Assembly (NCBI GenBank): GCA_050125095.1
Contig: JASFEA010000051.1
Span: 1 to 19,533, forward strand
From: a bacterium
GTDB lineage: Bacteria; Arandabacterota; Arandabacteria; Arandabacterales; JALGWA01
Reading direction: 5' to 3'
Length of the DNA stretch: 19,533 nt
Below, piece by piece: positions 2 through 19,533 of this stretch (position 1 is the first letter of the stretch; every line of letters starts with the position of its first letter). The notes under the pieces were generated by a model, which was not told the DNA's origin, made no database searches, and was given only the letters and a program-made list of their open reading frames with translations. The position numbers and the translations under genes are program-made.

Positions 2-3000
2 CTCGACCAGCAGGCGAGCAGGCTCAAGGTCAGCATCGAGGAGTTCGGGGAGATGACCCTGAGGTCCGAGCATCCTCCGCGTATGGCCGGCCGGTGCAGC
101 GTGTTTGCCAAGACGGACATGATTCATCTCCAGCAGCAGGCCACGCCCGACTACGACATAGTGGCCGGCCTCTGCTTCGCGATGGCCCGCAACTTCAAGT
201 CGTCCATAGCCAAGGGCAAGCATTTCACCAAGCCCATATCTTTCCAGGGCGGCGTGGCCGCCAACAAGGGCATGGTAAGGGCTTTCACCGAGGTACTGGG
301 CCTTGAGCCGGGCGAGCTCATAATACCCGAGCATTTCGCGTCAATGGGGGCCATCGGCGCCGCGCTCACGGCGATGGAGAAGGATGAGAGACTTAAGGGC
401 GTGATTGACCTTAAGCCTCTCGAAGACCACATTGAAAGGCACGCGGGGCTCGGAGAGGGGCTGCCGCGGCTCCAACTTCCGCCCGAGAAGTGCTACAAGA
501 ACCGTGGCGAGAAGACCATACACAGGCCCAAGGAGAGAATTAAGGCCTATCTGGGCATAGACATCGGCTCAATCAGCACCAATGTCGTCGCGATTGACGG
601 GGACAAGCGCGTCCTCTCGCGGCGCTATCTGATGACCGCCGGCCGCCCCATCGAGGCGGTGAGGCAGGGCCTTGACGAAGTGGGTGGGGAGATCGCCGAC
701 CTGGTTGATGTATGCGGTGTGTGCACCACGGGCTCGGGACGTTACCTCATCGGCGACTTCGTGGGCGCCGATCTGGTGCGCAACGAGATCACCTGCCAGG
801 CCCGGGGCGCGGCTGATATCGATCCGACGGTCGATACCATATTCGAGATCGGCGGCCAGGACTCCAAGTACATCAGTCTCGAAGGCGGCGCGGTGGTCGA
901 CTTCGAAATGAACAAGGTATGCGCGGCCGGAACGGGCTCGTTCCTCGAAGAGCAGGCCGAGAAACTCGGCATCAATATCAAGCGCGAATTCGGAGAGCTG
1001 GCCCTGGGTTCCAAAAATCCCGTGAGGCTGGGCGAGAGATGCACGGTATTCATGGAATCCGACCTCGTTCATCACCAGCAGAAGGGGGCCGAGCGGGACG
1101 ACCTCATAGCCGGTCTCGGCTACTCGATCGTGTATAACTATCTCAACAAGGTGGTCGCCGGCAAGAGAGTCGGGGACAACATCTTTTTCCAGGGAGGCAC
1201 CGCGGCCAATGACGCCGTGGTCGCGGCCTTCGAGGCCGTTACCGGAAAGCCCATCACCGTTCCGGAGCACCATGACGTGACGGGCGCCATCGGCGCCGCA
1301 GTGCTGGCGCTGGAAAACGCGACTGACGGCAAGAGCACCTTCAAGGGTTTCGATCTCAGCAAGAAGAAGTACGAGATTACGAGCTTCGAATGCCATGACT
1401 GCCCAAACATGTGCGAGGTGAGGAAGGTCGTCGTGGAGGGCGAGAGGCCCCTCTATTACGGCTCGCGATGCGAGAAGTTCGACGTTGACAAGAAGACCTC
1501 GAAGGCCGAGGGCGTGCCGGATCTCTTCGGCGAGCGCGAGAAGATGCTGACGACGCTTTTCGTGAAGCCCGGGCCGGATGTCAAGAAGGACGACACCAAA
1601 GTCGGCGTTCCCCGGCTGCTTCTCTTCCACGAGCTCTATCCGCTCTGGCACGCGTTCTTCGCCCACCTTGGAATAGACCCCGTGCTGTCGGATAAGACCA
1701 ACACGCGCATCATTCACGCCGGCGTGGAGGACGTTCCCGCGGAGACATGCTTCCCGGTGAAGGTCGGCCACGGGCACATCAAGAATCTGCTTGATAAGGA
1801 CGTGGACTATATATTCCTTCCCAGCGTCATCAACCTGAAGCACAGGAACCCTTCGATCGAACAGAGTTTCGCATGCCCTTACGCGCAGACGATTCCCTAC
1901 ATGTCGCCGTCGGCTTTCGATTTCGAGGCCCATGGCGTGAAGATCCTTGAGCCCAAGGTATTCCTGGCGCGCGGCAAGAAGGAGATAGTGAAGAGCCTCG
2001 AGGAGGTGGGCAATCAGCTCGGCAAATCCAGGTCTCAGGTGAAGGCGGCCGTCGATGCCGCTCTGGAGTCGCAGGAGATGTTCTACTCCTCGCTCAAGAA
2101 GCGCGGCCAGGAAGTGCTCGATAATCTCGGGGACGACCAGAGGGGTTTCGTCATCGTCAGCCGCCCGTACAACGGCTGCGACAACGGCGTGAATCTCGAG
2201 CTTCCAAAGAAGCTCCGCGACCTGGGAGCGCTTCCCATTCCCATGGATTTCCTGCCGCTGGATAAGGTCAATCTCGCCGACGAGTGGGAGAACATGTACT
2301 GGCGCTACGGCCAGAAGATCATGGCGGCGGCGGAGATCATAAGGCGGGACAAGCGACTCTTCGCTATTTACATCACCAACTTCGGCTGCGGTCCGGACTC
2401 GTTCCTCCTGAGGTTCTTCCGCGAGGCCATGAGAGGGAAGCCCTATCTTGGAATAGAGATCGACGAGCACAGCGCGGATGTCGGGGCCATAACGCGCTGC
2501 GAGGCGTTCCTGGACAGCATAGAGCATGCGCGGGTCACCGAGCTGGACGAGGACGTCACCGTGGTCGACGATCGCGACAGGCTCACGACAACCGGAGACG
2601 GGCGGAAGCGCAAGCTGTATGTTCCCAACATGTCGCCACATGCCCACCCCTTTGCGGCGGCGTTTACGAGGGCCGGCATCCCGGCGGAAGTCCTCCCCGA
2701 ATCGGACAGCGAGACGCTGGTCTACGGGAGGCAGTTCACCTCGGGAAAGGAATGCTACCCCTGCATCGTCACAACCGGAGACATGGTAAAGAAGACGAAA
2801 GATCCCGACTTCGACCCCGACCACTCGGCCTTCTTCATGCCTTCAGGCACTGGACCCTGCAGGTTCGGGCAGTACAACAAGCTGCACAGGCTCGTTCTCA
2901 AGGAGATCGGGCTGGAGCAGGTGCCCGTTATATCCCCCAACCAGGGAAGGTCGTTCTACAACGAACTGGGCGAAGTCGCGAAGAACTTCGACCGGACGGC

Positions 3001-3826
3001 CTGGCGCGGACTTCTGGCCGTCGACTTCATATTGAAGATGACGAGGGAACGCAGGCCCTACGAACTCAAGAAGGGCGAACACGACAGAGTGTTCTGGGAG
3101 AGCGTCCACAGGGTGAGCGACTGCATTCTGAAAGATGAGGACATCTTTGACGTGCTTGAGGAGATAAGGAACAAGTTGTACGCCATTCCGATAGACGACA
3201 GCGTGAGGAAGCCGCTGATCGGCATCGTGGGAGAGGTGTTCGTGAGGACCAACGCTTTCAGCAACAATAACATCGTCGCCGAGGTCGAAAGGCTGGGCGG
3301 CGAGGCGCTGCTGCCCCCGTTCACGGAGTGGATAATGTACACCAACTTCACCCGCAAACGCGGCAACCTCCTCAACAAGGACTACAAGTCATACTTCGTG
3401 ACCTGGATTAAGGACCGGGTGCAGAAGAAGGACGAGCACCGCATGATGGAGATCTTCAAAGGCTACGTCAGGAACCTGCACGAGCCGACCACCGAGGAAG
3501 TTATAGAGGAGGGTATGGCCTATATTCACGATTCTTTTGAGGGGGAGGCCATATTGAGCGTCGGCAAGTCCATCGACTTCGTCGAGAAGGGCGCGAGCGG
3601 CATCATAAACGTAATGCCGTTCACCTGCATGCCAGGGACCGTGGTGGCCGCGGTCATGAAGCGGGTAAGGCGCGACCTGGACAATGTCCCGTTCCTCAAC
3701 ATGGCCTATGACGGCCTCGAGCAGACCAACACGGTGACAAGGCTGGAGGCGTTCATGCACCAGGCGGCCCAGTACGATCGGCGCAAGAGGGCCGAGAAAG
3801 AGGTTGAGATAAAAGCTGCGGCCTGA
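2..3826 (+). CDS. CoA-substrate-specific enzyme activase (tandem BadF/BadG/BcrA/BcrD ASKHA ATPase domains) fused to DUF2229 / 2-hydroxyacyl-CoA dehydratase-like domains; 5'-truncated
   Basis: The frame is open from base 2 (LDQQASRLKVSIEEFGEM...), so ATG 53 is internal. First ATPase repeat: GRCSVFA, FQGGVAAN, MGAIGAA. Second repeat: GIDIGSIST, TTGSGR, EIGGQDSK, MNKVCAAGTGSFLEEQA, RCTVFMES. Then CHDCPNMC, ETCFPVK, CPY, FGCGPDS, ECYPC, GPCRFGQY, PFTCMPG, TRLEAF. Confidence 0.9.
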   Translation, partial: LDQQASRLKVSIEEFGEMTLRSEHPPRMAGRCSVFAKTDMIHLQQQATPDYDIVAGLCFAMARNFKSSIAKGKHFTKPISFQGGVAANKGMVRAFTEVLGLEPGELIIPEHFASMGAIGAALTAMEKDERLKGVIDLKPLEDHIERHAGLGEGLPRLQLPPEKCYKNRGEKTIHRPKERIKAYLGIDIGSISTNVVAIDGDKRVLSRRYLMTAGRPIEAVRQGLDEVGGEIADLVDVCGVCTTGSGRYLIGDFVGADLVRNEITCQARGAADIDPTVDTIFEIGGQDSKYISLEGGAVVDFEMNKVCAAGTGSFLEEQAEKLGINIKREFGELALGSKNPVRLGERCTVFMESDLVHHQQKGAERDDLIAGLGYSIVYNYLNKVVAGKRVGDNIFFQGGTAANDAVVAAFEAVTGKPITVPEHHDVTGAIGAAVLALENATDGKSTFKGFDLSKKKYEITSFECHDCPNMCEVRKVVVEGERPLYYGSRCEKFDVDKKTSKAEGVPDLFGEREKMLTTLFVKPGPDVKKDDTKVGVPRLLLFHELYPLWHAFFAHLGIDPVLSDKTNTRIIHAGVEDVPAETCFPVKVGHGHIKNLLDKDVDYIFLPSVINLKHRNPSIEQSFACPYAQTIPYMSPSAFDFEAHGVKILEPKVFLARGKKEIVKSLEEVGNQLGKSRSQVKAAVDAALESQEMFYSSLKKRGQEVLDNLGDDQRGFVIVSRPYNGCDNGVNLELPKKLRDLGALPIPMDFLPLDKVNLADEWENMYWRYGQKIMAAAEIIRRDKRLFAIYITNFGCGPDSFLLRFFREAMRGKPYLGIEIDEHSADVGAITRCEAFLDSIEHARVTELDEDVTVVDDRDRLTTTGDGRKRKLYVPNMSPHAHPFAAAFTRAGIPAEVLPESDSETLVYGRQFTSGKECYPCIVTTGDMVKKTKDPDFDPDHSAFFMPSGTGPCRFGQYNKLHRLVLKEIGLEQVPVISPNQGRSFYNELGEVAKNFDRTAWRGLLAVDFILKMTRERRPYELKKGEHDRVFWESVHRVSDCILKDEDIFDVLEEIRNKLYAIPIDDSVRKPLIGIVGEVFVRTNAFSNNNIVAEVERLGGEALLPPFTEWIMYTNFTRKRGNLLNKDYKSYFVTWIKDRVQKKDEHRMMEIFKGYVRNLHEPTTEEVIEEGMAYIHDSFEGEAILSVGKSIDFVEKGASGIINVMPFTCMPGTVVAAVMKRVRRDLDNVPFLNMAYDGLEQTNTVTRLEAFMHQAAQYDRRKRAEKEVEIKAAA

Positions 3827-4000: not shown

Positions 4001-4993
4001 ATGGCCGAATTGCGGAGACATCCCATACTCGGGGAATGGGTCGTCATCTGTCCCGAGAGAGAAGACTATCTCTCGGAGAGATGCCAGTCTCCATGCATCT
4101 ACTGCTCGGGAAACGAGAACCGCCTCGGCGTCGAAATCTATGCCGGCGAGCCGATATCAGGCAGCGGGGACGGCGACGGCCGGATACGGGTATTCGCGGG
4201 CTCGCCGCCCCTCTTCAGGATCGAGGGCGGGCTCGGAAAGCGCGCGGTCGGCATGTGCGATTGCATGCAGAGTATCGGCGCGCATGAGGTCGTTATCGAA
4301 TCCCCGTTGCATGATAAAGACATGGAGTCCTTGGACGACCGGACGCTTTGCGCACTATTCGACGTCCTCCGCCTGCGCTCCGCGGACCTCGCCCAGGACA
4401 AGAGATTCCGTCACATTACCATATTCAGACTCGACGCCTGCGATGATTCAGGGAACCGGGTGCATCCGGTATGGGACATAGTCGCCACGCCGTTCATCCC
4501 TAGAGCGATCAAAGATGAGCTCCAAGGCGCAAAGCAGTATTTCCTTCACAAGGAACGCTGCGCATTCTGTGACTACATACGCCAAGAAAAGGCCGCCGAA
4601 GAGAGAGTCATCATCCAAGATCCGCACGCAATCGCCGTCCTGCCGTATGCAGCCCGGTTCCCTTTTGAAATATGGCTGATGCCGCTCAGGCACTCACCGG
4701 ACTTCGGTGCCGCGGGCGGAGACGAAAGCCTCAGTATCGCCCGCGCCCTCAAGAGACTGATCGGCGCCTATAAGCGGCTCGAGCATTACAGGGGTTACAT
4801 ACTCTCGATTCACACGGCTCCGGTAAGGCGTCTGGGGCAGGGCAAGTGGGAGACCATCGACCAGGACTTTCACTGGCATGTTGAGCTCCGGCCCCGGCTG
4901 AACGGGGTTGACGGCATAACCGAGTCAGTCGGGTTTCATCTCAACCCGGTACCGTCCGAAGAGGCGGCGCGCATTATGAGGCAATACCTGTAA
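4001..4993 (+). CDS. GalT (galactose-1-phosphate uridylyltransferase / HIT-fold) homologue, catalytically degenerate
   Basis: MAELRRHPILGEWV N-terminus, CIYCSGNE, GAHEVVIESPLH, RCAFCD, PYAARFPFEIWLMP, FHWHVELRP and GFHLNPVPSEEAA are GalT-family-like. The HPHxQ catalytic motif reads HPVWD. Confidence 0.85.
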   Translation: MAELRRHPILGEWVVICPEREDYLSERCQSPCIYCSGNENRLGVEIYAGEPISGSGDGDGRIRVFAGSPPLFRIEGGLGKRAVGMCDCMQSIGAHEVVIESPLHDKDMESLDDRTLCALFDVLRLRSADLAQDKRFRHITIFRLDACDDSGNRVHPVWDIVATPFIPRAIKDELQGAKQYFLHKERCAFCDYIRQEKAAEERVIIQDPHAIAVLPYAARFPFEIWLMPLRHSPDFGAAGGDESLSIARALKRLIGAYKRLEHYRGYILSIHTAPVRRLGQGKWETIDQDFHWHVELRPRLNGVDGITESVGFHLNPVPSEEAARIMRQYL

Positions 4994-12648: not shown

Positions 12649-13734
12649 ATGAGAACTATCGCCCTTTCCAACCAGAAGGGCGGCTGCGGTAAGACCACAA
12701 CGGCCATAAACCTCTCGGCCTGCCTCGCCTATAAGGGAAAGCGGGTACTTCTTATCGACCTCGACCCGCAGGCTCACGCCACCATGGGAGTCGGCGTCAA
12801 GGTGGAAGACCTGATGCGGAGTATGTACGAGGTGATGCTGGAGGGCGCCGGCATTGAGGAGATCACACGGGAAGTCAGGCCGCTCATGGACATAGCCCCA
12901 GCCGCCGTGGTCCTGGGCGCCGCCGAGCAGAGACTCGCGGGAGTGGACGGTCGCGAGAACAGGCTCTTGAACGCCCTCGGGACTATCCAGAAGCCCTATG
13001 ACTACGTCATCGTGGACTGCCCGCCCAGTATCGGGCTTCTGACTTTCAACGCGCTCCGCGCCTGCAACGAGGCCATAATCCCGATAGAGGCGAGCTTTTT
13101 CTCGCTCTGGGGAGTGGGGCGGCTGCTCGACATGATCGAACTTATAAAGGAAGAGCTCTCGCATGAGTTGAGATACAAAGCTCTCTGCACGATATACGAC
13201 GGCCGGTCCAAGTTCTCGGCCGAGATAGCCGACGACGTGTTCAGCCATTTCGAGGACCGCGTCTATGAAACCATAATTCACACCAACGTGAAGCTCCGGG
13301 AAGCTGCGAGCTATGGTATGCCCATCACGGAGTACTCGCGGCGTTCGCGGGGTTATCGCGAGTACCTCAGGCTGGCCAATGAGGTGCTTCGTGAAGAGGT
13401 GGCGGTCAAGGTGGAAGAGGCCGTGCAGACGTCCGTGGAACGGCCGTTGAAGGAGATATACGGTCCGGTACCCGTGGCGGGCGGCGTGCTGTTCAGAATC
13501 AACGCACCGGGCGCGCATTCGGTCAGCCTGATAGGCGATTTTAACGGCTGGGACGAACCTGTTGACCTTAACGACGATGACGGCGACGGCGTGTGGATAG
13601 CCATAGCGCGGCTCGACCCGGGCACTTATGAGTACAAGTTCATTGTCGACGGCGACTGGCAGACCGACCCGACGAACCCGGCCGACGTGGATGACAGGCA
13701 CGGGGGCAGAAACTCGGTCGTGGTGGTGAATTAG
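12649..13734 (+). CDS. ParA/Soj-family ATPase fused to a C-terminal CBM48 / AMPK-beta-type glycogen-binding domain
   Basis: Deviant Walker A NQKGGCGKTT, DLDPQAHAT, Walker B IVDCPPSIG, YDGR, NVKLREA. From about 13486: APGAHSVSLIGDFNGW...GVW...LDPGTYEYKFIVDGDWQTDPTNP...GGRNSVV. Confidence 0.9.
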   Translation: MRTIALSNQKGGCGKTTTAINLSACLAYKGKRVLLIDLDPQAHATMGVGVKVEDLMRSMYEVMLEGAGIEEITREVRPLMDIAPAAVVLGAAEQRLAGVDGRENRLLNALGTIQKPYDYVIVDCPPSIGLLTFNALRACNEAIIPIEASFFSLWGVGRLLDMIELIKEELSHELRYKALCTIYDGRSKFSAEIADDVFSHFEDRVYETIIHTNVKLREAASYGMPITEYSRRSRGYREYLRLANEVLREEVAVKVEEAVQTSVERPLKEIYGPVPVAGGVLFRINAPGAHSVSLIGDFNGWDEPVDLNDDDGDGVWIAIARLDPGTYEYKFIVDGDWQTDPTNPADVDDRHGGRNSVVVVN

Positions 13735-13735
13735 T

Positions 13736-14674
13736 TTGAATGAAGAACCGGGAGAGAGACGCGGCCCAAGACGCAAACTCGGACGCGGACTTAAGGACGT
13801 ATCGCATATATTCCTCTCGGGAGCGGAGCCCGGCGAAAGTTTCTCCGAGCCGGCGGCCGGCCCCGACCCGTTCGAAGACGCTCATCCCGCGCCCGCGACC
13901 TGGCTTCCGGACGCAACCTATATAAGCATAACCTCCGGCGAGAGGGTAAAGGGCAAGTCGATGTTCTCGGCCAACCTAGCCTTCTCCTTGAGAGCCAGAG
14001 GCTACCGGGTGACGCTGGTCAACGCCGACTCCGACGAGCCCGGCCTGCTCGACCTGACCGGGTGCAGACAGGGCGAGGTACTCGACGGCTCGCTTGTTAC
14101 CAATGAGGCCTTCGGCGAGCTGCCCGTAGTGACGATTTACGGCGGAAAGCGCAACCCGGGCGAGACGCGGCTCGATGTCACCGAGCCCCTGGCGGCCGCC
14201 GGGAGGGAGGCCAGGCTCGTGGTCTCGGACACCTCGCCGCTGGCTGACACCAGCTACGGCATGTGGCGAATCGCAAGCCTCGTGGTCGTCCTCACGGAGC
14301 CCTCCATAGACTCCATGCGTTCCTCTTATGTGGTCATTAAGCGCATACACTCGGCGGCCCCCGGTACGAGGATCGGTCTCGTCGTGAACAGCGCGACGAG
14401 CCACGCCGAGGGAGAGCAGTGCTTCAGAAAAATATCCGGTGTCTCCAGGGATTTTCTTAAGATAAACCTAAGGAATTATGGTATAATCATGCGCGATCAG
14501 GCAGCCAGGCAGGCTGGTGAGAAGAGAGTGCCTTTGCTGGGGGCGTTCCCCGGGTCGAAGGCATCAGAATGTGTGGAATCGGTCGCGCGGCTCATACTCA
14601 TGGATGAGTCCGCAATTGCCAGAAGGCGAACGGAGGTGAGACCTGAGGAGTGCGCATTGAGAAGAGGAGCATAG
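13736..14674 (+). CDS. Degenerate FlhG/FleN/MinD-like P-loop protein with ParB-like LGRGL N-terminal peptide
   Basis: TTG start 1 nt after the ParA stop. N-terminal RRKLGRGLKDV; ITSGERVKGKSMFSANLA; VTLVNAD; VSDTSP; VVLTEPS; GLVVNS; FlhG-like C-terminal half (GIIMRDQ...PLLGAFPGSKASECVESVARLI). Confidence 0.75.
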   Translation: MNEEPGERRGPRRKLGRGLKDVSHIFLSGAEPGESFSEPAAGPDPFEDAHPAPATWLPDATYISITSGERVKGKSMFSANLAFSLRARGYRVTLVNADSDEPGLLDLTGCRQGEVLDGSLVTNEAFGELPVVTIYGGKRNPGETRLDVTEPLAAAGREARLVVSDTSPLADTSYGMWRIASLVVVLTEPSIDSMRSSYVVIKRIHSAAPGTRIGLVVNSATSHAEGEQCFRKISGVSRDFLKINLRNYGIIMRDQAARQAGEKRVPLLGAFPGSKASECVESVARLILMDESAIARRRTEVRPEECALRRGA

Positions 14675-15450
14675 ACAGCGGCGAGGAGCTCAAGAGCCTC
14701 ACCCGGGAAGCCCTTACGGGCGAGATAGAAGACCTGGTTTTCATAGAAGACCTCCCGGCCATGGGCGAGCCCATGGAGATCGGTTTTCTGGCCGGCGACA
14801 GCAAGGGCAGAGTTTTTATAGTCGCCGCGGGCGACGGCTCCGGGGACACTCTGGTACCGCTCTATGCCAGGCATCTGGAGTGGATGAAGTCGACGCTGTC
14901 CACCCTGGTGCAGAGGCATCCCAAGTTCGACTGGAGCGGTGAGCCGGGATGCATCATGCTGGCGTCTTCATTCAGCAGTCACACCCTTCTGCTCGCGTCG
15001 ATGCTCTCGGTGACGCCGAAGAGGGCATATACTCTTAAATGCCTTGGTATCGGCGCCGAAAAGGGCCTGTACATCGAGGAGCTCGAACTGCCTGAAGTCA
15101 GGCTCAAGGCCGAATACGCGAAGCCGGAAGTCAGTCTGCTTTCGGAGACGGTGGACAAGATTCTGGGTGTTGCCGACGGGCTTTCCGTTACTGCGTCGTT
15201 CGGTTACATGAGCAGCTCTCTGGACTGGGTGCCCGTCGCGAACCTCAACCGGAAGCGCGGCAAGATCTGGATCGAATCCGGTCCTGGGATCTGGTCCATC
15301 AAGCGCGTTGCCGACGAGAAGTCTCTGGAAGCCGTCATGGATAGAGTCAAGGATTCCTACGACGAGGCTCTCAAGAAGAAAGGCCAGCCACGGGATTCGG
15401 ACAGTGAGAACCTTTCGGAAGCGGAACGCAAGAGTCTCAGCATGGACTAG
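14650..15450 (+). CDS. Hypothetical protein; N-terminal half resembles a degenerate PD-(D/E)xK (NucS/EndoMS-like) fold
   Basis: GTG start overlaps the upstream gene by 25 nt and codon usage is host-like. The segment EIGFLAGDSKGRVFIV resembles IDxLAxDxxGxxVIIExK without the catalytic residues. Confidence 0.65.
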   Translation: MRIEKRSIDSGEELKSLTREALTGEIEDLVFIEDLPAMGEPMEIGFLAGDSKGRVFIVAAGDGSGDTLVPLYARHLEWMKSTLSTLVQRHPKFDWSGEPGCIMLASSFSSHTLLLASMLSVTPKRAYTLKCLGIGAEKGLYIEELELPEVRLKAEYAKPEVSLLSETVDKILGVADGLSVTASFGYMSSSLDWVPVANLNRKRGKIWIESGPGIWSIKRVADEKSLEAVMDRVKDSYDEALKKKGQPRDSDSENLSEAERKSLSMD

Positions 15451-15504: not shown

Positions 15505-16371
15505 ATGAGGACACTCCGCTGGTTTGAAGGCGCGCTGGTTTTTATCGTGTCGTATATCGTCTCATCGGTCGTTATCCTGCCGCTGATCCCCTTTTTGTCG
15601 CTGAGGAGCGTGACCGCAATCTCGGTCGTCGTGCTCGTGGGGATCGCGTATCTGTGGACCCGCCGGCTTACAGGCGACGTCCCGGGCTATGTCGGTATGC
15701 ATGCGGTTTCGCCCGGGGTCCTGGCCCTCACGGCCATCGGCAGCTTCGCCGTCATGATCCCGGTGATGAGCCTGCAGGCCGTCGTGCTGGAGCGCTTCAG
15801 GGCCCCTCCCGAGGTTCTGCATGCCCTTGAGGATCTTATCCGCGCGGAAAACCCGCTTCAGTTCGCCTACGCCATCCTGGTGGCGGCCGCAGGCGCGTCC
15901 ATAAGCGAGGAGTTCGTCTTCAGAGGCATACTGCAGAACTCGCTGTCGGGTAGGGTCGGCCCGTGGAGGGCCCTTGTACTGGCAACCATCGTCTTCGGAC
16001 TTCTCCACACGCTGTGGCGCTTCCCGGCCGCTTTCATACTCGGGCTGTTTCTGGGCTTCCTTTACCTGAGAACGGGTTCGCTCATCCCCGGGCTCCTGTC
16101 CCATTTCATCACAAACGTCTCTTCAATCGTGCTCTTCAATGTGGCCGAGCATTCTGCATCGGGCATAATACCCGTGTGGATGGAACAGGACAGGCCCGCG
16201 CCCGCCTATCTGGTGGCCCTGTCGCTGTCTGTTTTCATAGTCGTCCTGGTCGCTCTCTGGCGCGCAACCGGTGAAGAGGCGGATTCGTACCCGCCCGGTC
16301 GCCGCGCCGGAGGCTCGGCGGCCGGTGACGGCGTGATTCATCATGAGGAGTCCGGACATGACCTCGCGTGA
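15505..16371 (+). CDS. CPBP-family (CAAX/Rce1-like, Abi) intramembrane metalloprotease
   Basis: Multiple transmembrane segments; ISEEFVFRG, FGLLH, LRTGSL, HFITN motifs. Confidence 0.9.
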   Translation: MRTLRWFEGALVFIVSYIVSSVVILPLIPFLSLRSVTAISVVVLVGIAYLWTRRLTGDVPGYVGMHAVSPGVLALTAIGSFAVMIPVMSLQAVVLERFRAPPEVLHALEDLIRAENPLQFAYAILVAAAGASISEEFVFRGILQNSLSGRVGPWRALVLATIVFGLLHTLWRFPAAFILGLFLGFLYLRTGSLIPGLLSHFITNVSSIVLFNVAEHSASGIIPVWMEQDRPAPAYLVALSLSVFIVVLVALWRATGEEADSYPPGRRAGGSAAGDGVIHHEESGHDLA

Positions 16372-17425
16372 GAGGGTCGGCATCGCCCTGGACCGGGGAG
16401 TCCCGGACCGCGTGCCCATTCACGACGGCTACTGGGACGAGGCCGTGCAAAGATGGCGCGGCGAAGGCATGCCCGAGGCCGCGGCCCGCGACCGCGACTC
16501 GATATGGGACTACTTCGACATGGAAATCAGGCAGATACCCATAGACCCGTCTTTCATGTTCGAAGAGAAGGTGATAGCCGACGATGAGAGATATATCCTC
16601 AAACGGGTGAGCGACGGCGGCGTCTATAAGTACATTAAAGGCTCGACCGCGACTCCGGGCCTGGTCGAGTTCCCGCTCAAGGGGCGGAGGGAATGGCAGG
16701 ACCTCAAGGAGAGATTGAGGCCCTCCGCCGACAGGCTGCCTGCGGACCTCCGGGCCAGGTACCGCAAATACAGGGAGGACGGGCGCTTCGTCGTCATCGT
16801 CATGCACAATCCGTATGAGGCCACCTGGTCCAAGTTCGGGGTCACCAATCTGCTGGAGAGCATGAAGCTGGATCCCGAGCTCGTGCGCGAGGTCTTCGCC
16901 GCGGTCACCGACATGAACCTGGCCATGTGCGAAGAGATCCTGGGCGCCGGCTATGAGGTGGACGGCGGCTGGATCTGGGGCGATATAGCATATAATAAAG
17001 GAACGCTTTTCTCTATCCGGATGTACGAGGACCTACTCCAGCCCTTCAATAAGCGGCTGGCCGGTTTCTTCCGCGAGCGCGGCCTCCCGGTTGTCTACCA
17101 TACCGACGGCGACGTCCGAACGGTGATCCCCCTGCTGATCGAGGCGGGAATGACATGCTTGCAGCCGCTGGAGTCCAAGGCCAACATGGATCTTGTCGAG
17201 CTCAAGCGCGAGTACGGCGACAGGCTCGCCTTCATGGGCGGCATAGACTTCGAAGCCATATCGAAGGGCGAAGCCTCCATGATAGAAGAGATCCGGAGCA
17301 AGGTGGGCCGGGGCAAGGAGGGGGGCGGCTATATCTACCACTCGGATCACTCTGTGCCTCCCAAGGTCAGCCTCGACCAGTACAGGCGCGTCCTGGACCT
17401 CGTCCTCGAGTACGGCCGCTACTGA
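16358..17425 (+). CDS. Uroporphyrinogen decarboxylase-like (UroD/MtaA-CmuA superfamily) protein
   Basis: MTSRERV...PDRVP, GDIAY, YHTDGDV, LQPLE, AFMGGID, GGGYIYHSDHSVPP. The RBS gaggag favours ATG 16358 over 16343. Confidence 0.88.
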   Translation: MTSRERVGIALDRGVPDRVPIHDGYWDEAVQRWRGEGMPEAAARDRDSIWDYFDMEIRQIPIDPSFMFEEKVIADDERYILKRVSDGGVYKYIKGSTATPGLVEFPLKGRREWQDLKERLRPSADRLPADLRARYRKYREDGRFVVIVMHNPYEATWSKFGVTNLLESMKLDPELVREVFAAVTDMNLAMCEEILGAGYEVDGGWIWGDIAYNKGTLFSIRMYEDLLQPFNKRLAGFFRERGLPVVYHTDGDVRTVIPLLIEAGMTCLQPLESKANMDLVELKREYGDRLAFMGGIDFEAISKGEASMIEEIRSKVGRGKEGGGYIYHSDHSVPPKVSLDQYRRVLDLVLEYGRY

Positions 17426-17687
17426 ACCGGGCCTTGAACAAGACCCTCTGAATGAACCTATTGAATGAGCCCATCCGAACCGTGCCTCCTGTTGGCAAGA
17501 CCCTCTGAGCGTGGCCTCTCGCGCCCCTGAGCGGCCCCACGCCACAATATACTAAAGTAATTCTGCACTCCTCCCGACCAAATTAATGTGCATAACGCAA
17601 TAGCGTAACAAGGACGTTATGGGTGAATTCCTGCCTGTAACCCGTTTTCTCTAGACGATTGAACGGTTTAAGCCACGTCCTGTTTGA

Positions 17688-17703
17688 TGGCACAGCACTT
17701 GCT
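17688..17703 (+). promoter_or_regulatory. Sigma-54 (-24/-12) promoter for the putative glycoside hydrolase
   Basis: TGGCAC-agcac-TTGCT is an exact TGGCAC-N5-TTGCW match. It is preceded by an AT-rich region containing a cataacg...cgttatg dyad (17591-17621). Confidence 0.8.
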
Positions 17704-17736
17704 GAAATCAAGATGGGGCCAGGCAAGGTACCGCCT

Positions 17737-19533
17737 ATGTTTACTAAAAGGACATCAGTCATTGCGACCTTCTTCGTCGTGCTGCTCGTTGCAGGTGGCC
17801 TGGGAGCTTCGCCTGACGCATACCCGAAGGTCGCCAACTTCTACACGACCGACCCTCACTTCGAGGATTGCCCGCGCCTGAGCCGGTATGACCTGGTTGT
17901 GATGCCCGCGTCGATGCAGGACGTGTGCCCGGAGATCATTGCAGAGCTCAGGCTCCTCAATCCGGACATCATAATAATGGCCTATTTCCCCGCCGCCATA
18001 ATCTGGCCGGTTTACCCTACGACGGAATCGGTGTCACGGCAATACTGGGACAAGGTGGAAGCCTGTGACTGGTGGCTGTACGACACCAAGGGCAACAGGG
18101 TGGGGAGTCCCGAATACTGGTGGATACTCAATCTCAGCACCAACTGCCCGGAAGACCCTTACGGGCAGACACTCGGCGAATGGCTGGCCGAGTTCATGGC
18201 CGAAGAGATTTATGCCACGGGCCTCTGGGACGGCCTCTGGGTCGACGAGTGCTGGGAAAACCCGAACTGGATAAACAACGGCGAGTTCCTGTTCCAGGAC
18301 CCTCCCGCCGCACTGGACAGCGACCGGGACGGCATTGCGGACGATCCGGAAGAGCTGCAGGCCGCCTGGTACGCCGAGCTGTCGGGATTCATCACGTCTC
18401 TGAGGGCCCGGGTGGGACCCGATGCGATCATGACCGGTAACGGCAAGCAGATGATGCACGAGTGGCTCAACGGCGGCATTCGCGAGAACTTCCCCAATAT
18501 GCATGGCGGCTGGGAAGCCAATATGTTCTCCGATTACGGATACCTCACGAACTGCGAGATGTTCCTGGACTCGCCGCTCGTTGCCAGCATGATTACATGT
18601 TTCTCGGAGCTGGAACAGCATACAGTCTATGAGCCGTATCGTTGTCCCAGCTATATGAGGTTCCTCAGGTTCACGATGACCAGCGCGCTCCTGGGCGACG
18701 GCTACTATGTGCTCGAGGATGGGTCGGGGAGATGCCTGTGGTGGGAGGACCTCTATGACCTGGACATGGGTCTGCCTACATCGAGCGCGTATCTGGACTC
18801 GATCTACAGCCAGTCGGGAGCCAGGATGTGCCCTATCTGGCGGCGCGACTTCGAGAAGGGCTACGCCCTCTGCAATCCGTTCAACCAGTATATTTATACG
18901 CTGGACAATGAGTGGATCTCGGCGGAAGACGGGATGATAGTAATTACCGCGAGCGACGCCGACCTGGCAGTGGCCGCGATCAGGGACGGCGTGCCGGCCG
19001 TGGTCGACAAGGACGTGCCCAGGATCAGGATCGATACAGAGGTGATAAACCCCTCGGACCACTCGGCGCCGGCCTATGTATGGTCGGAGACCAAACTGGG
19101 CGACGTGGTCATGAACACGGGGCCGGTGCTGGAAATACTCGTGGGCAAGCAGGATACGGATACCGTGACCGTGACGGTGGGTTTCCCTGCGTCCCTGGGG
19201 CTTGAGACATATACCATCGAGATCAATGTCGCGGGACCCGACATGGAGGTTCTCGACAGCGACATTCTCTATATAAGAAGAACGGTGGAATTTCCGAGCG
19301 ACAAAGAGGGTCTTTACGACAATCAGGATCCAAGTGCGGACACGAACGAGGAGGACAATCTTCTCATATACCCTCAGCCGGTAGCTTTCTCTTCTGGCGA
19401 AACCCTCAGGATGGAGGTGAGGGCCGACCAAACATCGGCTAATGAGATCTGCAGGATCAATATGTTCGATGTCAGGGGGAGGCTTGTACGTTCAGTATAT
19501 GAGGGTGTATATGGTGAAGGGCTGAGTTTGGAA
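17737..19533 (+). CDS. Secreted putative glycoside hydrolase (GHL15-like TIM barrel) with Ig-like and FlgD/T9SS-like C-terminal domains; 3'-truncated, missing from the ORF track
   Basis: Hand translation gives 599 codons with no stop. Signal peptide MFTKRTSVIATFFVVLLVAGGLGA; YDLVV, LNPDIIIMAY, WDGLWVDE, DSDRDGIAD, TGNG, NGGIRENF, SALLGDGYY, WRRDFEKGYALCNP; then LIYPQP...FDVRGRLVR. An alternative ATG lies at 17713. Confidence 0.82.
   Translation, partial: MFTKRTSVIATFFVVLLVAGGLGASPDAYPKVANFYTTDPHFEDCPRLSRYDLVVMPASMQDVCPEIIAELRLLNPDIIIMAYFPAAIIWPVYPTTESVSRQYWDKVEACDWWLYDTKGNRVGSPEYWWILNLSTNCPEDPYGQTLGEWLAEFMAEEIYATGLWDGLWVDECWENPNWINNGEFLFQDPPAALDSDRDGIADDPEELQAAWYAELSGFITSLRARVGPDAIMTGNGKQMMHEWLNGGIRENFPNMHGGWEANMFSDYGYLTNCEMFLDSPLVASMITCFSELEQHTVYEPYRCPSYMRFLRFTMTSALLGDGYYVLEDGSGRCLWWEDLYDLDMGLPTSSAYLDSIYSQSGARMCPIWRRDFEKGYALCNPFNQYIYTLDNEWISAEDGMIVITASDADLAVAAIRDGVPAVVDKDVPRIRIDTEVINPSDHSAPAYVWSETKLGDVVMNTGPVLEILVGKQDTDTVTVTVGFPASLGLETYTIEINVAGPDMEVLDSDILYIRRTVEFPSDKEGLYDNQDPSADTNEEDNLLIYPQPVAFSSGETLRMEVRADQTSANEICRINMFDVRGRLVRSVYEGVYGEGLSLE

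Follow-up and report, generated by a model that had tools for sequence, protein, structure and literature searches.

A FlhG-like P-loop protein with a portable N-terminal peptide is a candidate partner of a glycogen-binding ParA ATPase

ATPases of the ParA/MinD family organise chromosomes, plasmids, carboxysomes, flagella and division sites, and many orphan members have neither an identified partner nor an identified cargo. Which protein is the partner of one such orphan, ParA-CBM48, is the question raised by a stretch of DNA of 19,533 nucleotides (nt) from a bacterium of the phylum Arandabacterota (assembly GCA_050125095.1, contig JASFEA010000051.1; the whole stretch analysed is called the window). 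The ParA-CBM48 gene (12649..13734, + strand) encodes a ParA/Soj-type ATPase with the deviant Walker A motif NQKGGCGKTT and a C-terminal AMPK-beta/CBM48 glycogen-binding domain according to Pfam (AAA_31, 3.2e-54; AMPK1_CBM, 7.9e-15; CBM_48, 5.4e-8), and is presumed to be the motor of the system. The next gene, here named pMinD (13736..14674, +), encodes a FlhG/FleN-like P-loop protein of 312 amino acids (aa) with an N-terminal partner peptide, and is followed by a third gene, g3 (14650..15450, +). A preliminary description, made from the sequence alone, had proposed that pMinD is an inactivated MinD/FlhG-like paralogue that has taken the ParB/adaptor role for ParA-CBM48 by way of a ParB-type LGRGL peptide. 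Our analysis suggests, at a probability of about 55%, that pMinD is the cognate partner of the adjacent glycogen-binding ParA, that is, its adaptor and probable ATPase-activating protein.

We found that the order of these genes is fixed. The TTG start codon of pMinD lies one base after the TAG stop codon of the ParA-CBM48 gene (13732-13734), and its 3′ end overlaps g3 by 25 nt. Among 18 genomes of the phylum, 16 contain pMinD, all 16 have ParA-CBM48 directly upstream of it, and g3 directly follows in all 14 genomes where the contig continues. The synteny also includes a flavin reductase gene upstream and a CPBP protease gene downstream of the cluster. The pMinD gene is always translationally coupled behind ParA-CBM48.

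The pMinD protein begins with RRGPRRKLGRGLKDVSHIFL, and Arg or Lys makes up seven of its first 20 residues; a Pro/acidic stretch comes next (residues 29-55). LGRGL occupies residues 15-19 (nt 13778-13792), and reading the frame bore out the earlier layout of an N-terminal tail, a Pro/acidic linker and a P-loop domain. A codon-by-codon reading located no in-frame ATG, GTG or TTG between the TTG start and Met76, which is already past the Walker A motif; therefore LGRGL lies within any plausible pMinD protein, and a start codon downstream of the motif is ruled out. The basic tail (residues 8-28, RRGPRRKLGRGLKDVSHIFLS; 13757..13819, +) is at least 90% conserved and has a predicted local distance difference test score (pLDDT) below 50, as expected of a disordered segment. 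Within it, the core R-G-L-K-D-V-S-H-I-F-L-S (residues 17-28; 13784-13819, +) is family-wide: genes behind ParA-CBM48 in other phyla start with it as well. The linker (residues 29-55; 13820..13900, +) also has a pLDDT below 50 and varies in length and sequence among orthologues, with gap-rich alignment columns from 32 to 110.

A database search for pMinD retrieved 58 proteins including the query, of which 36 were aligned. In this alignment, conservation reaches at least 90% at L15, G16, R17, G18, L19, V22, S23, H24, F26 and S28, both exceptions being N-terminally truncated records. The phylum's genomes supply 13 distinct nucleotide versions, in which L-G-R-G-L and the S, H, F and S that follow are invariant even as their codons differ (five codons for Arg17 and four for Gly16); the peptide is therefore translated and under purifying selection. 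The tail motif of pMinD (core [RK]xLx[DE][IV]SHLFLS, here RRKLGRGLKDVSHIFLS) is under strong protein-level selection. The weight of the evidence rests on this conservation, the pentapeptide by itself being no rarity: in this GC-rich genome, [LIVM]G[RK]G[LIVM] occurs 146 times in six-frame open reading frames (ORFs) of 80 aa or more, and 46 of these matches are LGRG[LIVM].

By sequence likeness alone, the conserved KLGRGL (residues 14-19) corresponds to the N-terminal LG[RK]GL motif of ParB. The ParB peptide has been described to bind the ParA dimer interface and to stimulate ATP hydrolysis; it depends on its central Arg or Lys and its hydrophobic residues, and is more active when two copies are brought together (PMC12462528, PMC11229316). 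Like ParB/Spo0J of T. thermophilus, H. pylori and M. xanthus, pMinD has a short LG[RK]GL motif with a central Arg/Lys followed by Leu and hydrophobic residues, a disordered N-terminus and a gene directly behind that of its ParA. Unlike ParB, its body is a MinD/FlhG fold, and its Pfam matches include neither PF02195 nor any other ParB family, whether the ParB_N CTPase domain or the helix-turn-helix (HTH) parS-binding domain; pMinD is thereby ruled out as a ParB. The peptides also differ in part. The family motif shares its central basic residue and Leu with that of ParB and then runs on as DVSHLFLS, a His-Leu-Phe-Leu-Ser extension that is absent from ParB; LGRGL itself is dispensable in most phyla.

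The phylum possesses a ParB of its own. An rsmG-soj-parB locus occurs in 16 of the 18 genomes, with a ParB starting with ALGKGLDALIPD (five loci) or ALGRGLEALIPD (one locus). These ParBs begin ALG[KR]GL[DE]ALIPD, and the LG[RK]GL part of the pMinD tail is almost identical. Neither a ParB_N match nor a canonical Soj is present in the window's own genome, as assembled to 91% completeness; because of this incompleteness, and because ParB is found in 16 of 18 genomes (same-genus G015 included), the gap is probably one of assembly rather than a true absence. Since a normal rsmG-soj-parB locus is found in 16 of 18 genomes, the ParA-CBM48/pMinD system is additional to ParABS.

The body of pMinD (residues 56-300; 13901..14635, +) is an alpha/beta P-loop domain whose MinD/FlhG-type fold had been correctly recognised. 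A profile of the pMinD family matched FleN (5j1j, E 7.1e-27), FlhG (4rz2, 7.7e-23) and MinD (1hyq, 6.5e-10) in the PDB, and no Soj/ParA structure at E ≤ 0.01. An AlphaFold2 model has a mean pLDDT of 78.7, with residues 1-52 below 50 (disordered) and residues 56-300 mostly above 90. Foldseek ranks 1-8 for this model are all FlhG or FleN (FlhG 4rz3, E 3.5e-16; FleN 5j1j, 5e-15; compare MinD 1hyq, 2.5e-13). Family annotation is sparse: Pfam yields a weak CbiA match (E 7.6e-7, 29.6 bits against a cut-off of 25.4), PF10609 falls under its cut-off and every NCBIfam match is far under its own. Aligned by hhalign to the neighbouring ParA, pMinD gives a probability of 97.1% and an E-value of 6.3e-11 at 16% identity over 230 columns. 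It is a paralogue of the FlhG/MinD branch and not a ParA copy; a recent duplication of the adjacent ParA is ruled out by the 16% identity and the placement in the FlhG branch.

How far this domain has degenerated was a central point of the preliminary description, and here only part of it stands. The Walker A region TSGERVKGKS (residues 66-75; 13931..13960, +) has Glu69 in place of the signature Lys and lacks the inner GG; FleN aligns GGKGGVGKT to its SGERVKGKS (residues 67-75). At switch I/Walker A′, VNAD (residues 95-98; 14018..14029, +) replaces xDxD, as had been described, with A97 and D98 invariant and position 96 either Asn or Asp among orthologues. The Walker B strand is LVVSD (residues 161-165; 14216..14230, +). 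None of the 36 aligned sequences has the deviant Walker A motif KGGxxGK[ST], the signature position being E, D, A, G or V. The loss of the signature Lys and inner glycines is thus real, but a classical GxxxxGK[ST] is kept: T66, S67, G68, G73, K74 (then Ser/Thr), D98 and D165 are invariant in the 36 sequences, so that the P-loop, the switch-I Asp and the Walker B Asp are all present. Because of this invariance, and because McdA lacks the signature lysine and is reported to function through Lys151 (PMC6582323), the term "inactivated" was an overstatement. Like cyanobacterial McdA, pMinD combines a classical rather than deviant Walker A with a ParA/MinD fold. McdA differs in being a motor, which uses its substitute Lys151 and forms an ATP sandwich dimer (PMC6582323); candidate substitutes in pMinD are K202, K232 and K242, which are invariant in the 36 sequences.

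We then compared the genes behind ParA-CBM48 across bacteria. A search with the C-terminal half of ParA-CBM48 returned 189 proteins, among whose sources Nitrospirota and Phycisphaerales are named. Species-representative genomes were also scanned and gave 594 confirmed ParA-CBM48 stretches; the best 80 were kept, and six of them were dropped where the CBM end was not found, leaving 74 loci from other phyla. By their record titles, the 80 kept loci come from Myxococcota, Spirochaetes, Gemmatimonadota, Planctomycetota, Nitrospirota, Rokubacteria, Acidobacteriota, Krumholzibacteriota, Desulfobacterota and others. The downstream gene starts with PLGRGLEDVSHLFLS in Gemmatimonadota, Rokubacteria and Acidobacteriota, KKLGRGLEDFSHLFLS in Thermodesulfobacteriota, PRSLSDISHLFLS and similar peptides in Tepidisphaerales, LRSIEEISHLFLS in Nitrospirae, PKGLGDVSHLFLS in Krumholzibacteria and LPRDLADVLHYFLP in Myxococcota. 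In locus L058, the ParA gene is followed by a 178-aa ORF starting with KKKLGRGLAEVMDVFFPSR.

These starts share a motif. A first regular expression found it in 41 of 73 loci and missed Myxococcota-type starts and variants with D, E or G for His; it was replaced by a strict core, [RK].[LI].[DES][IVLF].H.[FY][LIF], together with a motif hidden Markov model (HMM). The strict core lies just downstream of ParA-CBM48 in 40 of the 74 loci and occurs elsewhere once in 694,864 aa of six-frame ORFs, that case also being after a ParA. The HMM recovers 46 loci, and a further 11 carry the Myxococcota-type variant R[DE]LxDV[LF][HD]YFxP, which brings the total to 57 of 74. Across 42 seed peptides, counted relative to the His, the columns read R28/K6 at -7, L35/I7 at -5, D21/E12 at -3, S30/A11 at -1, H36 at 0, F39 at +2, L37 at +3 and S33 at +4. 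Only 11 of the 40 loci with the strict core have LG[RK]GL; therefore the family-wide determinant, as read from these sequences, is [RK]xLx[DE][IV]SHLFLS, with LGRGL as a lineage-specific form. The earlier choice of LGRGL as the key peptide holds among pMinD orthologues and gives way to this core in the wider family.

The proteins that carry the motif vary. They were sorted into classes with HMMs of the phylum's pMinD and g3, iterated for four rounds on the same small ORF set, so that E-values from the iteration are inflated. In the first pass, before iteration, pMinD-like matches included L037 (2.8e-38), L049 (3.4e-22), L059 (2e-21) and L072 (7.2e-17), as well as Myxococcota C-terminal halves at 1e-9 to 1e-13; g3-like matches included L054 (2.7e-7) and L052 (2.9e-5). 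Of the 74 loci, 20 were assigned a MinD-like partner with a g3-like protein encoded separately behind it, 12 a MinD-like partner seen alone, 10 a fusion of both in one protein (Tepidisphaerales, Phycisphaerae) and eight the peptide directly on a g3-like domain. The remaining 24 have neither domain, and 10 of these still have the peptide. One locus, L029, holds 10 N and is read with reserve; without it there are 73 loci, 56 with the motif and 31 with a MinD-like partner. The motif thus travels with ParA-CBM48 and not with the domain behind it. In most other phyla, the MinD-like bodies have no P-loop (for example SDKGTGERA, SSDTLRPERT or SHLGARQFD), GGDRTPGKS being kept in one lineage. Because the P-loop is gone from most of them, the MinD-like body would at the family level be a pseudo-ATPase scaffold, of which the Eisenbacteria form is the least degenerate.

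The g3 protein provides a second companion. It has 266 aa and no match in Pfam or NCBIfam, and its predicted model (pLDDT 84) combines an N-terminal NucS-like PD-(D/E)xK fold with a YjbR-like C-terminal domain. VIA-align places residues 10-132 on the NucS nuclease domain 2vld_B (Z 9.2, root-mean-square deviation 2.8 Å, 104 residues), followed by restriction-endonuclease PD-(D/E)xK domains (Z 6-8), and residues 162-250 on YjbR/DUF419-like structures at a middling Z of 7.4-7.9. Foldseek found nothing at E ≤ 0.001, its best match being EndoMS 5gkj at 7.4e-3. Since the D...(D/E)xK positions are not retained in the window's g3 (IVAAGDG), the model points to a nuclease-like fold minus its catalytic residues. 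We consider g3 probably the second half of the adaptor: over the loci compared, the NucS-like module appears to be a more constant companion than the MinD-like protein, which would mean that pMinD is not the whole adaptor.

The same features place pMinD beside the known partners of ParA/MinD ATPases. Such proteins are described to contact their ATPases through a charged, disordered N-terminus (PMC10241942); because residues 1-52 of pMinD are disordered (pLDDT < 50), charged and encoded beside the ATPase gene in 16 of 16 genomes, pMinD matches this published rule. In McdB, PomX/PomY, MinE and ParG, a charged N-terminal peptide contacts the ATPase, and the genes adjoin that of the ATPase (PMC10241942, PMC7993993). 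As with these proteins, the partners of ParA-CBM48 have diverse, lineage-specific bodies and only a charged N-terminal peptide in common. Two differences stand out: the pMinD body comes, in degenerate form, from the superfamily of the ATPase itself and is joined by a nuclease-like module that has also degenerated, and the cargo-binding domain (CBM48) is carried by the ATPase and not by the partner. By analogy, the system may work in the manner of ParA with ParB, McdB or PomX. The proposal of an adaptor in the ParB role therefore keeps its support from the disordered basic tail, the ParB-like motif, the adjacency in 16 of 16 genomes and the 57 of 74 loci elsewhere, and is amended in that g3 would share the role. 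Among the papers listed by our literature search, which left subscription journals and supplements outside its reach, none deals with a fusion of ParA to CBM48 or another glycogen-binding domain, none with the motif and none with Eisenbacteria and ParA together.

From the published behaviour of ParB and other partner peptides, together with the comparative pattern, we infer how such a partnership could operate. The pMinD tail would dock on the ATP-bound ParA-CBM48 dimer, as the ParB LG[RK]GL peptide docks on Soj, and would tune ATP hydrolysis and release of the ParA-CBM48 motor. The P-loop domain would not be a motor but a scaffold, which might dimerise so that two tails are presented. pMinD would work with the NucS-like g3 protein, which is fused to the MinD-like domain in Planctomycetota, the two bodies forming the rest of the adaptor, and glycogen, bound through the CBM48 of ParA, is the presumed cargo. 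A complex prediction that combined pMinD residues 1-45 with two ATP and a pair of ParA-CBM48 chains (residues 1-255), each protein with its own alignment and run without controls, gave scores of 0.04 and 0.08 versus a mark of 0.32, a result that weighs on neither side of the question of binding. The target of the peptide is indicated by a single hint: in locus L072 (3989-5844; a Nitrospirae metagenome-assembled genome), a ParA of the CBM48 clade that has no CBM48 (a 298-aa ORF) is followed by a MinD-like partner starting with KKRLGKGLDDISHLFLS, which argues for the ATPase domain and not CBM48 as the target.

Regulation of one ParA/MinD-type fold by another, which the preliminary description regarded as unusual, has a precedent. 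The N-terminal DQAxxLR peptide of FlhG is reported to activate FlhF, another SIMIBI nucleoside triphosphatase (bioRxiv 10.1101/2022.03.19.484964). FlhG/FleN is the closest family to pMinD by sequence and fold and has the same layout, in which a linker connects an N-terminal regulatory peptide to a MinD-like domain. A more far-reaching proposal is possible but decidedly tentative. It envisages a multi-phylum positioning system whose motor, a glycogen-binding ParA, is controlled by a modular adaptor. Two enzymes that have lost their activity would make up this adaptor, a pseudo-ATPase derived from FlhG and a pseudo-nuclease resembling NucS, and the portable peptide [RK]xLx[DE][IV]SHLFLS would address it to the motor; the peptide logic of FlhG would have been re-targeted from FlhF to ParA. 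The MinD-like body, with its classical P-loop in Eisenbacteria, could then be a nucleotide-gated dimeriser that juxtaposes two tails, in the manner of the CTP-driven closure of the ParB clamp.

With pMinD, a widespread orphan ParA-CBM48 clade gains a candidate partner and a peptide testable by mutation. The peptide is portable between unrelated bodies, and the adaptor would have been recruited from the motor's own superfamily. If true, the partnership offers a system for studying the placement and inheritance of storage polysaccharide in bacteria, and a natural example of ATPase-activating peptides moving between scaffolds.

Several observations weigh against this partnership. Related genomes are non-independent observations, and the partner classes derive from the iterated HMMs with their inflated E-values. 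In 17 of the 74 loci, mostly from Pirellulales, Sedimentisphaerales and some Phycisphaerae, no motif is found downstream. A second ParA-CBM48 paralogue exists in the genome (contig C54:8330-9397, +; 356 aa, NQKGGCGKTT and a CBM48-like C-terminus), and no motif-bearing partner gene stands beside it, the next gene being on the opposite strand. L072 is the only locus that argues against CBM48 as the peptide's target. SHLFLS, the best-conserved part of the motif, has no ParB counterpart, and for this reason the pMinD peptide may bind something other than the ParB pocket. Similarly, a domain that keeps an invariant classical P-loop, D98 and D165, as it does in this lineage, may function as a nucleotide switch and not as a passive scaffold.

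The last two points lead to the strongest rival, which we judge unlikely. According to it, the tail docks away from the ATPase domain, on CBM48, on g3, on the chromosomal Soj through LGRGL cross-talk or at another site, and the P-loop domain is a true nucleotide switch. Besides the novelty of SHLFLS and the invariant nucleotide-binding residues, it can draw on the co-occurrence of the motif with CBM48-bearing ParAs, on the near identity of the LG[RK]GL part to the phylum's own ParB, and on McdA, a ParA-type protein that is reported to work without the signature lysine (PMC6582323). However, the one ParA that lacks CBM48 keeps its motif partner, and g3 is an unlikely target because the peptide itself heads g3-like domains in eight loci. 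The switch is also difficult to reconcile with the other phyla, most of which have destroyed the P-loop and kept the peptide. Finally, an N-terminal place on a disordered basic tail is described as a hallmark of peptides that contact the ATPase (PMC10241942), which favours docking on the ATPase domain.

A quite improbable alternative is a pseudo-dimer formed by the MinD-like domain and a ParA-CBM48 monomer, with a lysine-less half-site, which would cap or inhibit the motor and make the tail secondary. Both proteins do share the dimerising SIMIBI fold, as the hhalign comparison indicates, and pMinD has no trans-acting lysine. Yet their identity of 16% is low, pMinD belongs to the FlhG/MinD and not the ParA branch, the specificity of the dimer interface is reported to limit these ATPases to homodimers (PMC10241942), and eight loci have the peptide without any MinD-like domain.

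The least probable alternative is that pMinD is the organism's FlhG/FleN, a regulator of flagellar number or placement whose tail acts on FlhF or the C-ring and not on ParA-CBM48: its nearest relatives are indeed FleN and FlhG, automatic naming by JGI calls many members FlhG, the genome is flagellated (FlhA, 4.3e-259), and no flhG candidate was found elsewhere, but the annotation is rejected because pMinD occurs in seven phylum genomes without an FlhF orthologue (strong FlhF matches in nine of 18 genomes versus pMinD in 16 of 18), is tied in every case to ParA-CBM48 and g3 outside the flagellar cluster, and shows no DQAxxLR in the N-termini of the 36 aligned sequences. The loss of the signature lysine and the absence of any P-loop from relatives in other phyla likewise separate the family from FlhG. 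As for other candidates, no flhG or deviant-Walker-A ORF lies between flhF and the sigma-28 gene in the six of nine flagellar loci readable on the + strand, the window's own genome included, and the genome's 12,344 ORFs hold only five with KGGxGK[ST], none of them FlhG-like. The flagellar cluster itself contains flhA, flhF and a sigma-28 gene (contig C74:8377-12257 in the own genome; L109-L111, L114 and L115). Rejecting the label corrects an automatic FlhG annotation that is spreading in metagenome databases.

The C-terminus of pMinD is also conserved. Residues 286-312 (14591..14674, +) follow the pattern LILMDESAIARRRxEVxxEECALRRGA in the alignment of 36 sequences, with M289, D290, A293, I294, A295, R297, R298, E300, V301 and C306 invariant. 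This C-terminus, IARRRTEVRPEECALRRGA in pMinD, is charged and by eye unlike an amphipathic membrane helix. Its last 25 nt are shared with g3: the last eight codons (14650-14674) overlap the g3 start in another frame, and the TGC codon of the invariant Cys306 overlaps the GTG/ATG start of g3. Because of this overlap, part of the C-terminal conservation may reflect a dual-coding constraint and not a functional cysteine.

Behind g3, the window encodes a CPBP (Rce1-like) membrane protease (15505..16371, +; Pfam PF02517, 1.4e-21), which is found downstream across the phylum, and then a URO-D-like protein (the pair spanning 15505-17425, +); URO-D is also present in loci L041 and L042. No glycogen synthase or branching enzyme is encoded in the window, and no glycogen enzyme adjoins the cluster. 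At the other end of the window (53-3826, +) lies a large fusion of BcrAD/BadFG ATPase, DUF2229 and HGD-D of the CoA-enzyme activase type. Apart from a putative GHL15 glycosyl hydrolase (17659-19533, +), which runs off the 3′ end of the window, a GalT-like gene (4001-4993) is all that the window has in sugar-related genes.

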